Assembly: GCA_013166775.1 (NCBI GenBank)
Contig: JABLTJ010000034.1
Location: forward strand, 1 to 34,283
Source: Promethearchaeati archaeon
GTDB lineage: Archaea > Asgardarchaeota > Heimdallarchaeia > Heimdallarchaeales > Heimdallarchaeaceae
Reading direction: 5' to 3'
Length of the DNA: 34,283 bases
Notes under the pieces: generated by a model
Told to the model about the DNA's origin: nothing
Database searches by the model: none
What the model saw: the letters and a program-made list of their open reading frames with translations, nothing else
Part shown: positions 18,587 through 30,400 of the stretch, in pieces
Layout of the letters: each line of letters starts with the position of its first letter
How positions within the stretch are numbered: the first letter of the stretch is position 1
Made by a program: the position numbers and the translations under genes

Positions 18587-20329
18587 ATGCTTGATGATGT
18601 ATCTGAAGACGCAATATATTGTGGATGTATTGTATTAGCTCTAGGGGGAATAATTACAGGGGTAGTTATCGGTTTCAGACGCAATTAGTTTTTGACCTTA
18701 GCAATAGTAAGTACAATATAATTGTGCATACTATTGATATTCGGTTATATAGCTGCATGGGAAAAAATAACTAAGTACATAATTGGCATTCTTTCAGTTT
18801 TAGTAGTATCAGGTGCAATTACATGTGCTGTTATTAACTATACCTGGTTTTACTCTTTTTTTGAAATGGAACGAAATGTTATGCTCACAGTTTTTATTGG
18901 TGGTGGAATAGCCATAATACTTAGTTCGTTATTTCTTTCTGAAGCTGTAGCTTTTGATATAACATCTTCAGAGTACGGAAGTGATTGCCCAGGATTGATA
19001 GCTTTTCTAACAATAGCTTTTTCACTTATTTTTGGCAGTGGTCCACACCTTGTTGTTTATCTCATTTCGGTTTACCGTTATTCATCACAATTATTAGCAA
19101 TATTATTGTCTATTATCATTCCTTTAACCATAATACTGCTTACAATAGATATTATAGGATAGATTTCAGATTGGGGTAATGGTTATCGATTTATTTTTGG
19201 ATTACCATGTGGAATTATCTCAACAGTTGGAATTATATTTGGTACAATGGATTTCACTAACTTACAAGATTACATACAAATTAATAGAGAAGTATCCATA
19301 GCTCTTTTTGCTGGTGAGGGAGTAATACTATTCCTTAGTATGCTTCTATTGTCCGAGGGGTTTGTAAAAAGAGCAAATGAGTTAAACTATGCTCTCCCTA
19401 GTCGTATAGCAGGTAGTTTGTTATTACTTTCAGCGATTACAGGTGTATTTCCTTCTGTAATTATTAAAATTCAATCAATACAAGAACAATTAACCAACAG
19501 CAGTTATTTGCTTGCAATAATAGGGGCAACTTTGGTTCTATTAGGAGTATTCCTTCTTATTCTCCGAATAATAGTAAACTAAGAATTAATCAATCAAACG
19601 TTGAGGAAAGACGAGATAAACGAAGTGAAAAACAACAACAGAAAAAATATGAACAGGAAATAAAACAACAACAAAAAGAGTAAAAAACAAAACAAAATTT
19701 GGAGATGGAATTACTAAAAAGAAAGAGAGCGAATACAGGAATTATTGAACATCAAAAGGAAAAGCATTTACAAAGTAAATATACAAGCTTTGCTTCAAGA
19801 ATTGAATATTAACTTAGATCAGTTTAATAATGCTGTTTTCAGTAATGAAACAATCTTAAATTCTTGTGAAATAACAAAGAATGATATTGTTTTCATAAAA
19901 GAAAGAAATGAGTATTATGACGAGAAAAGAAAACAACTCGTAAAAAATCTAGAAGAAAAGAAAGCAGCTGTTTTTACAATTGACTTAGAGCAAATAAGTA
20001 AAGAATTATCAATTAACATGAACGTATTAAGGCAATTACTTACAGCAGATATTCTTCAGAGTTTTGATGCCAAACTTGATCGAAAAAGAATTATCTTTAC
20101 GATCAAAGAAGGATTATATGAAATGATAGAAGGAGTCAAAACTAAACTTGATGATTTTTATAAAAAGACTATCCGGGACGAAGCAACCTATGAAATATTA
20201 GTCGATGTACGATTTGAAATCGAATCCGCTATAAAACATGCAGAAGAACTAGGAGCTGTTGGAGAGAAAAAAGAATGTGAACGACTTCTTCGAACAATTA
20301 AGGAACATATTAAAGAATTTGATGTGTGA
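18587..20329 (+). pseudogene. Decayed polytopic membrane protein with coiled coil, two winged-helix-like units and the shared helical tail
   Basis: ATG 18587, ORF 18722..19162 and ORF 19247..19582 are one frame broken by TAG 18686, TAA 18719 and TAG 19160. It then shifts frame near 19580 into a Q/K/E-rich coil (TAA 19681), and shifts again near 19725 into 19745..20329. Confidence 0.85.
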
Positions 20330-20507
20330 AATAAAATAATAATGTTGTTAATACAGTATAAATGAATATAGAAAAAGAAAAGGTGCCTATTCATTCTTAG
20401 AACCATAACTACTTTGTTACAATCTATGAAACAGCTTGATAATTTCTGAATTGACTAATTTAATTCTTAACTTATCATCTTTAATTTTAAATGAAAGACA
20501 TGAGATT

Positions 20508-27233: not shown

Positions 27234-27423
27234 ATCTAACCACCTAAATATAACAAGTACTAATAAATTAATGGTACTTTTTTCGTTTGTCTTTTACTTA
27301 ATTGATTCCAAATTACTAATTATTCTATTCGTAAATAAATATATTTCAGATGACTTTCAATGAATTCTCATTTTGACTTATTGTGTGATTAAGTTAATTG
27401 TGATGATAATATAAACAATCATT

Positions 27424-30400
27424 TTATTTTCTAACGATCGAATTTATTTCATCTTCAACTTTTTGACATCTATTTATAAGATTTATATCTCCTAATTCTT
27501 GAGCAAATGCTTGCGCGGCTTCCACTTCGGTTTTGGCGTCAACCAAATGATCTAATGCTACATCAGCTTCACTTGCTTTTCTATAGCGAACAAGTAATAA
27601 TTCAATTCGATTAAGGATTTGTTTTATTGTTTCTTCATTATAGAAATAAACTAGTTGATCTTTTATATGGTATGAGAATTTCTTTTTGTTTTGGAGTTCC
27701 TCTAACAATAACCTCATATCAGTTGGGCTAATATTTAACTCATCACAGATGTCATCTATAGGCATTTCATTTTTAACCAATTGTTTTCTCTTCAAGTATC
27801 GTTTTATAATGACAATTGACTTACTATTGTGCTTGACTACTCCTCTTATAGTTAAGACTAATGTTAAAACAACAAAGATGCCTATTGCAGTAATTATTGA
27901 ATATGTTTTGATATTCTTACTTCTTGGATTATCTTTTGAATCTAATGGATCTGTTCCGGCATCTATTTCAGCTTTATCAGTAAAACCATCATAGTCGGAA
28001 TCCTCAGCATTTGGGTTTGTTCCATAAACATTTACTTCCTGCCCATCTGTTAGTTGATCATCATCGCTATCATCATCGTATGGGTCTGTGTTATTCTGAT
28101 ACTCTTCATAATTCGTTAGATCATCCGAATCGTAATCAGCATTTGCATCAGGGATCGTTGCATACGTTCCTTGGTCTACTTCCCATTTATCAGGTAATAG
28201 ATCAGAATCCGTATCGCTGTTTTGCGGATTGGTTCCTTCTGTATATTCCTCAAGATTAGTTAACCCGTCAAAATCATCATCTTCAGAAGCATCACTATTA
28301 TCTAATGGGTCCAAACCATTATTCTGCTCCCAACCATCGGGCATGGAATCATTATCAGAATCAAAATTATCTGGTTCTGTTCCTAACAAGTATTCTTCTA
28401 AATTAGTTAGTTCATCACTATCGTAATCATCTGCAGTATCATTAGAATTTGGATCTAGATTATGATTCACTTCAAAATCATCTGGCATAGTATCAGAATC
28501 AGCGTCTATGGTTGTAGGGTCAGTTAAATGAGTATTAATCTCATCTAAATCTGATAAGGAATCACCATCGGAATCTGCACTATTAGGATTTGTATAGAAA
28601 CCATCTGAGCCAAGAGTTATTTCTTCAAAATCGTTTATCCCATCAGAATCTGAGTCGGCATTTGTAGCGTTTGTTACAAAATAACCTGTTAAATTGCTAT
28701 AAGGATTTAATGGCTGATAATATCCTAGGATTTCTTCTCCGTCTAGTAATGAATCATCGTCCGTGTCATCGTCAAATGGATCAGTTTCGTATGTTATTAT
28801 TTCTAATCCATCGAGTAGTTGATCATTATCAGTATCATTTACTAGTGGGTTGGTTCCCTCAAGATATTCTTGATAATCATTCAAGTAATCATTGTCTGTA
28901 TCGTTTAGATTTGGATCTGTTAGAAAACCATCTATTCCCAGTGTCATTTCCTCGTCATCTGTCAAGCCATCTTGGTCACTATCATTATCAATCGGATTTG
29001 TGAAGCTAATATAAATCTCATAATAATCAGTATACCCATCTCCGTCCGAATCTGGATTTGTTGCATTTGTTATCCACCCATCTACTCCGAGTATAACCTC
29101 CTCTCCGTCTGAAATTAAATCACTGTCTGTATCGTTGTTTAAAGGTTCAGTAAAATACGTATGCACTTCTATTCCATCTAGTAAAGTATCATTATCACAA
29201 TCTATATCCCATGGATCAGTCAAATAGAATAATTCCTCTCCGTCTAATAACTGGTCATTATCGCTGTCGCTATCGTTAGCTAAGGTAATGTATCCATCTA
29301 TCCCTGGAACAATCTCTTCATTATCATCCAATCCATCCGAATCAGTATCGTCATCTACAGGACTAGTATGGCTTACATCAATTTCATAATTATCAGCTAA
29401 ATTATCTCCGTCGGAATCGCTATCCGCAGGATCAGTTATCCACCCATTAACCCCTAGAATAACTTCCTCCCCATCCCAAATAGTATCACCATCCGAGTCC
29501 ACATCCCAAGGATCCGTTGAATAGGTTAACTCAGCACCATCATTCAAACCATCAAAATCACTGTCAGGGTTCGTTGCATTTGTTATGTAATTATCAACTC
29601 CCAGGAAGACCTCTTCATAATCATCAAGATTATCATTATCGGTGTCGCTATCAAGTGGATCCGTCAAGTAGGTGTAATATTCCTCTCCATCCGTCAAATT
29701 ATCATCATCGCTGTCTGGATCATTCGGATTTGTTCCTAGTTCACTCTCCTTATTATCTCTCAAACCATCCCCGTCTGTGTCTGGTGATGGTATTGACAAC
29801 GGATCATTAGGATCACTGTCAGCGTCAATTTCCTCCCAGTCCGAGTAAGTATCCTCGTCTGAATCGCTGTCCATTGGATCAGTTAAATAGAGATGAACTT
29901 CTTCCCCGTCTAATAAATGGTCACTATCAGAATCGTTATCGTATGGATCACTACCGGCAAAATACACTTCTCCCCAATCATTCAGTAAATCATTATCGTA
30001 ATCACTATCAGTATGATTCGTACCAAAATAGGTTTGTTCTGTTAAATCATCTATTCCATCGAAATCTGTGTCTTTCCATCCTGTATGAAAGATTGACCCT
30101 TTAAAGCAAGACCATGGACTTCCTCCGGATAGTGTAACATTCGTTAATTCTAATATGTAAAACATTCCTGTTTCTGTTCCAACCGTTACTTCTAAAATAC
30201 CATCATTATCAAGATCAGCTAAACAGGCAGCTGCTGCAATATCTCCTGTTAAATAACTCCATAGAAGTGTTCCATTGTAACTTAAACAATAAAGTTTAGT
30301 ATCTCTTGAACCAATAACCACCTCGTACTTTCCATCATTATTCAAATCTGCAATTGTTGGCGATGACGAAATAAACGTTGAACTAAGATAATAATCCCAT

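Follow-up and report, generated by a model that had tools for sequence, protein, structure and literature searches.

The wider question raised by the present locus is what directs archaeal ESCRT-III to its place on a membrane when ubiquitin plays no part. Here, a 31.4-kb cassette brings together genes for two ESCRT-III-like proteins, a MIT-AAA ATPase, two GTPases, a GAP1-N2 protein, a subtilase and several proteins ending in a common tail. In the window, i.e., the whole stretch of 34,283 nucleotides analysed, an earlier note had described four receptors of variable input and constant output, whose cytoplasmic tails, read as a Vps25-like winged helix followed by a MIT/TPR-like bundle, would nucleate ESCRT-III directly. 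Two points are considered here, namely (i) what the tails are, and (ii) how they relate to the ESCRT-III-like genes.

The four tails do align, and all eight peptides quoted for them were found at the positions given. Three are encoded on the minus strand, namely tail 1 (27427..27834), tail 2 (25173..25610) and tail 3 (20511..20942), in genes designated hereafter by their first coordinate as 27424, 25170 and 20508, respectively; tail 4 (19910-20326) is on the plus strand, inside a remnant ORF (19745..20329). Pairwise shuffling gave z-scores of 12.2 (27424/20508), 9.8 (27424/19745) and 5.0 (20508/19745), and just 2.5-3.7 for pairs involving the 25170 tail, which is the most divergent. When each tail was removed with its close orthologues and the resulting leave-one-out profiles searched among 6,768 ORFs, the tails were recovered at E 2e-14 (27424), 6e-19 (20508), 2e-12 (19745) and 1.8e-10 (25170), the best unrelated ORF scoring E > 0.02; the homology of the four tails is beyond chance. 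As proposed, the AlphaFold2 model of the tail (pLDDT 85) consists of a winged helix (residues 4-63, alpha-beta-alpha-alpha-beta-beta) and three helices (residues 67-86, 90-114 and 117-135, the bundle covering 67-135), the latter a generic, TPR-like three-helix bundle for which the MIT label finds no profile support. At about 140 aa, this is an uncatalogued domain; literature searches returned no description of the family, the feature-based ESM Atlas search gave nothing usable for the tail, profiles of the tail and of the ESCRT-III-like proteins, run against PDB sequences, matched nothing but generic helical proteins, and the best Pfam hit of single members (PCI PF01399 / UFL1) stood at E 0.02, below cut-off.

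Three tails terminate single-pass surface proteins, all on the minus strand, namely (i) a 1776-aa protein (27424..32754) with a signal/anchor, two FG-GAP-type propellers arisen by internal duplication, a TSP3 stalk and a membrane span at about aa 1614-1642, (ii) a 687-aa protein (25170..27233) with an LVIVD propeller, a TSP3 stalk and a span at about aa 514-544, and (iii) a 1469-aa protein (20508..24917) with one FG-GAP-type propeller, a long TSP3 stalk and a span at about aa 1300-1327. Basic residues follow the span in these single-pass carriers. The differences announced between their outer parts (double FG-GAP, single FG-GAP, LVIVD) are real, but the three proteins also have in common the bacterial TSP3-repeat stalk and the single C-terminal span, and are thus tandem paralogues rather than unrelated receptors. 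Variable input on a constant tail was borne out, ectodomains being shuffled among tail subfamilies: 20508 and JGI protein b are 60% identical in the tail and 33% in the propeller, 27424 and JGI protein c 57% and 38%, respectively, and a lectin-like domain is common to one single-pass and one TSP3-type carrier.

The fourth supposed receptor, taken as polytopic, does not stand. The ORF 19745..20329, where a first and weak winged-helix-like repeat precedes tail 4, contains no membrane segment and is the 3' remnant of a broken polytopic membrane gene (about 18587..20329, plus strand), i.e., a pseudogene with six in-frame stops (18686, 18719, 19160, 19580, 19661 and 19715) and apparent frameshifts near 19575-19745. 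Contigs of run X3, possibly the source sample, span 18686, 18719 and 19160 without differences, and contigs of run X4, from a second study, span 19580 and 19661 likewise; because difference-free contigs bridge them, the breaks are not assembly errors. An intact homologue exists as a 963-aa protein in GCA_013166835.1, the 684- and 710-aa proteins of which are also homologous to the broken gene. An alternative genetic code was rejected, the stops being mixed (TAG/TAA) and the neighbouring genes ending normally.

As regards the rest of the cassette, 12475..13086 and 13144..13716 (plus strand) encode divergent ESCRT-III-like proteins, as claimed, with a profile match to canonical Asgard Snf7 at 94% (E 1.1e-7) over 102 columns of the alpha1-alpha3 core, versus 1% for the reversed control, and the second modelled as a helical hairpin plus a long helix. 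The Pfam scan of both gave no Snf7 match, and Foldseek placed CHMP1B, Asgard ESCRT-IIIB and Snf7 in the top rows for the ESCRT-III-like product, but at E > 0.05 and with generic hairpin matches. Beside them, the ATPase (13745..14899, plus strand) combines a genuine N-terminal MIT domain (profile 94%) with a single AAA domain; it falls in a clade of its own, apart from canonical Vps4 and Cdc48 (support 100/99, in a tree with one canonical Vps4 only, on a long branch) and carries RRGRL, with Cdc48-like arginine-finger spacing, not the RRF of Vps4. The next product (14911..15552, plus strand), a conserved helical module protein, had been counted with ESCRT-III but matches Snf7 at 1% and 12475/13144 at 20%. 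It is followed on the same strand by a conserved module protein with no family assigned (15612..16421) and an S8 subtilase (16439..18187) whose D/H/S motifs are intact and which, lacking a hydrophobic signal segment, is likely to be cytoplasmic. The minus strand encodes two DO-GTPases (10627..12303, i.e., 11434-12303 and 10627-11421; PF19975/PF19993 over cut-off), a GAP1-N2-like protein (7243..10569) with a long helical C-terminus (E 9e-5, 22.9 bits, just below the Pfam cut-off of 24, and no Pfam match to the GAP1 M or C domain) and a 1107-aa soluble protein (3901..7224), in which a propeller and beta-sandwich-like part are a language-model lead only (score 0.78). At 2146..3896 (plus strand) are two further genes conserved in the module, one for a TPR-like protein whose C-terminus resembles EAD11 (E 0.01), the other for a helical protein of 194 aa. 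No tail-homologous domain was detected in the module proteins (all <5%, with shallow profiles), nor any homotypic (EAD-like) partner. PADLOC matches to IetA/IetS were set aside as generic AAA and S8 similarity.

Module and tail genes lie within one insertion bounded by a 470-bp direct repeat (1450..1919) and its 88% identical right copy (33350..33820), while the site is empty in relatives, with one repeat copy only in genomes G080, G083 and G089. The genes flanking the cassette are 91-97% identical to those of the Asgard family JABLTI01 (Gerdarchaeales), which has the site unoccupied, and the contig is probably mis-binned, these identities pointing to JABLTI01 as the host family. A bin-wide tail search, which returned the four window ORFs only, was dropped as a test of exclusivity, since the contig probably does not belong to the bin. 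Conservation seemingly extending to another class (G143) was likewise discarded, since genes at the end of that contig share 71-78% identity with JABLTI01 and 34% with the family to which it is assigned, the latter compared through two members.

Tail genes adjoin the module in all four cassettes of this subtype, i.e., the window (four tail genes), JGI 3300031539 (three), GCA_013166835.1 (two) and GCA_014729055.1 (two). The ATPases of the other three are 47-78% identical to that of the window, and the four form one subclade; the four cassettes also seem to belong to a single family, to which the JGI contig is assigned solely by 73% DNA identity to the window. With one family and one ATPase subclade, the linkage may amount to one or two events. 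The cassettes occupy different sites where flanks were read (window, G080, G143). The linkage of the tails to ESCRT-like genes holds through recurrence and joint insertion, but its exclusivity is not supported: in JABLTI01, 16 tail genes in 12 genomes are located away from any module, which 11 of these genomes lack, and no tail was detected in eight further genomes with the ESCRT-III-like/ATPase module (several contigs being short), so that the tail is dispensable for the core. Weak partial matches in Loki/Hod genomes (E > 1e-6, half of the model) were rejected as generic winged helices; sister ATPases on Helarchaeales-like contigs are solitary, without the module. The tails of GCA_014729055 cluster with the housekeeping clade (support 99/95), a hint of second recruitment; a single clade of module-linked tails has a p-AU of 0.027, for a group defined after tree inspection.

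There is about an even chance that the tail is a lineage-specific docking or clustering module, recruited as the variable membrane component of the cassette. It is unlikely that the carriers are passengers instead, i.e., an ordinary fast-duplicating adhesin array riding the cassette, the tail having nothing to do with the module and serving a housekeeping function (clustering or anchoring to the cytoskeleton). In favour of such passengers, each of the 12 JABLTI01 genomes has, next to a MutY-like gene, a syntenic LVIVD-TSP3-TM-tail gene (in one of them truncated after the winged helix), and there are four solo tail genes besides; the three window carriers, as tandem paralogues, are transcribed opposite to the ESCRT genes and the fourth has decayed; and the layout of a TM followed by a PCI-tail occurs elsewhere (G000:C107, 870 aa), just as FG-GAP/TSP3 genes without tail also flank modules (G143, G108). 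Riding along is nonetheless at odds with 2-4 tail genes at every cassette versus 1-2 per whole genome elsewhere, with an adjacency kept down to 47% ATPase identity and through gene loss, with the two carriers of GCA_013166835.1, co-oriented immediately after the subtilase, and with the possible second recruitment.

Direct nucleation of an ESCRT-III-like filament by the tail, through a Vps25-like winged helix and MIT-like helices, is rather improbable. The idea draws on the ESCRT-III-like and MIT-AAA neighbours, linked in 4/4 cassettes of the subtype, on the lack of any recognisable ESCRT-II gene in the cassette, and on canonical ESCRT-III, present in 12/12 JABLTI01 genomes, which module-free tails could serve. 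In hhalign, however, the tail winged helix matched 31 Asgard Vps25 sequences at 1% over 15 columns (the real Vps25 of the bin being G000:C1:276405), and PF05871 was not among the Pfam matches listed for the tails, while the helices reached 0.55% versus canonical Vps4 MIT and 0.37% versus the cassette MIT, in a test where the ATPase MIT, as positive control, gave 94%. Vps25, Vps22 and MIT were also absent from the best 50 rows of the fold searches, although this is not an exclusion. Like the tail genes, Vps25 associates a winged-helix fold with ESCRT-III and Vps4-like genes, but it is soluble with two tandem winged helices, whereas the tails are membrane-tethered with, in three carriers, a single winged helix and three helices, the tandem copy being weak and restricted to the polytopic subfamily. 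Direct nucleation also meets the eight module genomes without detectable tail and the 11 tail genomes without module, as well as the poor surface conservation of the tails between paralogues (16-22% identity), hard to square with one common partner. A complex prediction of the 27424 tail with 12475 and 13144 (score 0.00, mark 0.32) carries no weight either way.

Among the matches listed, the closest winged helices are those of UFL1/DDRGK1 (Z 9.1-10.1; Atlas TM 0.61 over 120 aa), followed by the PCI winged helices of COP9/eIF3/proteasome (Z 8.4-8.9), Z values of 8-10 being commonplace for such folds; the three-helix bundle matched generic folds (GAT, BAG, plakin, designed repeats). DDRGK1 is membrane-anchored with a C-terminal winged helix, and PCI as well as UFL1/DDRGK1 winged helices pack on one another. 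In UFL1, helices follow the winged helix in the same order as in the tail, but the tail genes have no ligase context; PCI subunits have an N-terminal helical solenoid, whereas the tail winged helix starts directly after the membrane span. That the tails be membrane-tethered DNA-binding regulators, on the model of ToxR/ArnR and possibly freed by the cytoplasmic subtilase, is very unlikely. Pointing that way are the intact S8 enzyme nearby, GntR/MntR in the Foldseek top rows (E 0.03-0.1, TM < 0.4), a TFIIE-beta match of one member (E 3e-4, below cut-off) and, in the housekeeping clade, lysines conserved where helix 3 begins. However, the winged-helix cores of cassette tails have a net charge of -5 to +2 (net acidic in 8/11 module-linked tails) and conserve no basic residue in the wing or in helix 3, the GCA_014729055.1 cassette has tails but no adjoining subtilase, and the best domain-level matches are of non-DNA-binding PCI/UFL1 types.

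As a docking or clustering module, the tail would serve protein interaction, its PCI/UFL1-type winged helix and TPR-like bundle belonging to a surface-protein family native to JABLTI01, members of which the mobile 31-kb cassette would have captured and amplified, shuffling their outer domains. The outer propellers and lectin-like domains may bind surface ligands, and the receptors may be gathered by their tails, in the manner of PCI and UFL1/DDRGK1 winged helices packing together. The tails may also be where a soluble scaffold of the cassette (7243, 3901 or 2146) docks on the membrane, a site at which a GTPase switch would then license ESCRT-III-like polymerisation and ATPase turnover; in this system, the tailed proteins would be the sensor, the anchor or the cargo. 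On this reading, the link to ESCRT-III is most likely indirect. Against it count the few events to which the linkage may amount, the module genomes without tail, the tail-less FG-GAP/TSP3 genes beside modules, the lack of a homologous domain in the module proteins and the poor conservation of tail surfaces. A bolder and less likely possibility is that the tailed proteins form an exchangeable set of receptors, with a common tail linking external ligands, straight or via one adaptor, to a private GTPase-gated ESCRT-III/ATPase machine, in a receptor-triggered system of membrane remodelling or defence that does without ubiquitin and ESCRT-0/I/II.

The cassette resembles the GAP1-N2-type DO-GTPase systems in its two DO-GTPases, GAP1-N2-like gene, mobile neighbourhood and variable membrane components, TM components with extracellular domains being typical of these systems (Kaur et al., 2020, PMC7159879). 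The themes described for them are tubulin, HSP70 or kinase; ESCRT and Snf7 are unmentioned in the paper, as are winged-helix-tailed propeller/TSP3 proteins in the section consulted. The FNIII-repeat component of such systems was not recognised in the cassette (no match in the Pfam FNIII search, although 3901 may hold beta-sandwiches). Archaeal non-canonical ESCRT loci ("Main" clade TM kinases, Halo_adaptin systems) share with the cassette the MIT-AAA plus divergent ESCRT-III pair, winged-helix proteins, proposed as ESCRT-III partners in several archaeal systems, TM proteins with a terminal PCI-like winged helix, and propeller plus Ig proteins (Makarova et al., 2024, PMC10936438). Unlike them, the cassette has no kinase, its DO-GTPase/GAP1 and subtilase are not described there, and its ATPase forms a separate clade with Cdc48-like arginine-finger spacing. 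Prokaryotic FG-GAP/LVIVD propeller and TSP3 surface proteins match the entire extracellular part of the carriers, but most of those in the bin end <=20 residues past the span, whereas the carriers add a folded 140-aa tail.

In practical terms, mis-binned contigs can fake cross-class conservation, which stands as a warning. For the targeting of ESCRT-III, the parts to be considered are few and confined to the cassette, and a natural control exists in the housekeeping genes that bear tails of this family where the module is absent. Should docking on the module prove specific to the cassette tails, as opposed to the housekeeping ones, a receptor-to-ESCRT route would be known among the close kin of eukaryotes, and ESCRT would become a fourth theme of the GAP1-N2 GTPase systems; otherwise, what the locus still reveals is a lineage-specific tail domain, as yet uncatalogued, on proteins whose ectodomains have clearly been shuffled.

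The four C-terminal segments of about 140 residues ("tails") borne by the open reading frames (ORFs) 27424, 20508, 25170 and 19745, named after their window coordinates, align with one another, and the peptides cited by the earlier note are found in the window. Pairwise shuffling is clear for three tail pairs (z 5-12) and weak for the pairs involving 25170 (z 2.5-3.7). Leave-one-out profiles, each built without the tested tail and its orthologues, recover every tail (E 2e-14, 6e-19, 2e-12 and 2e-10), whereas no unrelated ORF falls below E 0.02, and since this test is non-circular, tail homology is taken as settled. 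Of the four membrane proteins initially reported to carry it, 27424 (two FG-GAP-type propellers), 20508 (one) and 25170 (LVIVD propeller) also have a TSP3 stalk and a single membrane span in common, and are thus tandem paralogues with different heads, but the fourth is a remnant: ORF 19745, on the plus strand, forms the 3' part of a polytopic gene that is broken and contains six stops in frame. Five of these stops are bridged by difference-free contigs from two studies, and an intact homologue of the gene exists in GCA_013166835.1. A contig of run X3 is identical up to position 19316 and then unrelated, a sign that the broken gene may have been rearranged, or have received an insertion, in that population. 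In the related cassette of JGI contig 3300031539, protein a is a true orthologue (propellers 74-77% identical, tail 65%), protein b matches 20508 at 60% in the tail and 33% in the propeller, and protein c matches 27424 at 57% and 38%, respectively; these identities show that ectodomains have been shuffled among tail carriers. A lectin-like, unannotated extracellular domain of ~180 aa, without match in a Pfam search, is common to two distinct tailed proteins (L073:5364-9740, aa ~500-680; P0005).

These genes lie in a cassette (1920-33349) inserted as a whole between copies of a 470-bp direct repeat (left 1450-1919, right 33350-33820; 88% identical). No integrase is seen in the cassette, which encodes two DO-GTPases, a GAP1-N2-like protein, two ESCRT-III-like proteins (12475 and 13144; 94% against canonical Snf7 in profile comparison, with a supportive, non-significant Foldseek ranking) and a MIT-AAA ATPase (13745-14899) whose clade is distinct from those of Vps4 and Cdc48. 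This clade is present across several Asgard families, and its Helarchaeales-like subclade occurs alone, near small GTPases (L169, L170). The last ~58 aa of protein 2146 (3110-3288) are EAD11-like (E 0.01), a C-terminus kept on its own in a distant module (L034:14774-15835). In three genomes of JABLTI01, an archaeal family which we take to be Gerdarchaeales, the site is empty and the repeat occurs once, with an alcohol dehydrogenase gene on one side and a condensation-like gene on the other. Compared with the empty site of one JABLTI01 genome (G080), identity is 95% for the right flank and 90% for the left, which suggests that the cassette came from a related species through homologous recombination. 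The condensation-like gene (513-1900) appears frameshifted in its 5' part in the left repeat copy, its upstream codons lying in a different frame, whereas the right copy keeps the frame but is truncated. The proline racemase-like, condensation-like and alcohol dehydrogenase genes of the flanks (1-1919 and 33350-34283) are 91-97% identical to the closest empty-site JABLTI01 genome. The bin is placed in Heimdallarchaeaceae by its Vps25 cluster; in that family the condensation-like gene has no match (0/30 genomes) and alcohol dehydrogenases are only distant. Given the flank identity, this missing match and tetranucleotides making the contig the most atypical of its bin, mis-binning is most likely, and the count of only four tail copies in this genome is void as a test of exclusivity, the contig being probably foreign.

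In a set of 399 Asgard genomes, tails of full length are found in the bin, in 12/12 JABLTI01 genomes (truncated in one of these) and on a single contig from a Loki-labelled bin, itself probably from JABLTI01; members of the ESCRT-III-like family are present in 11 genomes. The proposed linkage to ESCRT-like loci holds beside 4/4 cassettes of the subtype with paired GTPases and protein 3901, each adjoined by 2-4 tailed genes. Against the linkage, 11 JABLTI01 genomes have tails without the module, in most cases a single LVIVD-TSP3 gene, syntenic and next to a MutY-like gene, and no tail is detectable in eight module-bearing genomes. As the ATPases of the four cassettes form one subclade, these are not four independent events; the tail tree, in a weak test, hints at two recruitments. 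That the tailed genes are a passenger adhesin array, for which tail genes away from any module would speak and the constant adjacency within the subtype would not, is unlikely, albeit worth weighing. On the Loki-labelled contig, likely from JABLTI01 (GCA_014729055.1, WJKO01000639; L031-L032, L164), about eight surface genes of the propeller/TSP3 type, two of them tailed, lie on the flanks of the module, which has neither subtilase nor 15612 homologue beside it. Other module variants (L070:252-1065; L071:1903-7431) show a small TM gene and a winged-helix gene apart from it, just one GTPase, an FG-GAP protein with a Zn ribbon, or a Band-7 (SPFH) gene with a 659-aa polytopic protein.

The tail is modelled (pLDDT 85) as a winged helix (residues 4-63) followed by three helices (67-135), two halves that are separable since the intact 963-aa homologue of the broken gene carries an extra copy of the helical bundle alone. 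The closest solved winged helices are those of UFL1/DDRGK1 (Z 9.1-10.1), PCI subunits reaching Z 8.4-8.9; the best Atlas match is a UFL1 cluster (TM 0.61 over 120 aa), and the helices resemble generic bundles. For this model, such middling scores indicate fold, not function, and no Pfam family exceeds its cut-off in the tails. The Vps25-like and MIT-like identities advanced earlier find no support: profile comparison gives 1% with Asgard Vps25 and under 1% with MIT, while the MIT of the cassette ATPase itself, as positive control, scores 94%. The earlier note was largely right in what it observed, its identity claims being unsupported; direct nucleation of the ESCRT-III-like proteins by the tail, although these genes are neighbours, appears quite improbable. 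Less probable still is a tethered regulator set free by the cassette subtilase, which is without signal segment: of 11 module-linked tails, 8 have a net acidic winged-helix core, and the core shows no conserved basic column, which argues against DNA binding.

The cassette core resembles the GAP1-N2 DO-GTPase systems (PMC7159879), often with variable TM components, and non-canonical archaeal ESCRT loci (PMC10936438), some of which encode TM proteins whose C-terminus is a PCI-like winged helix; in the accessible text of these two papers, no description of the present gene combination or tail was found. A membrane protein of 870 aa in the Heimdallarchaeaceae bin has a PCI match at its C-terminus (E 2e-5; G000:C107:25116-27728) and is unrelated to this tail family. 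Most likely, at about even confidence, the tail is a docking/clustering module of a native surface-protein family. Tail homology, protein layout, ectodomain shuffling and the joint insertion are demonstrated. The cassette would employ these proteins as its variable membrane component, the tail would dock and cluster them, and a GTPase/GAP1/scaffold layer would connect them to the ESCRT-III-like proteins, with ligand binding, the partner of the tail and any membrane remodelling likewise presumed. A functional link between the tail and the ESCRT-like module is plausible.
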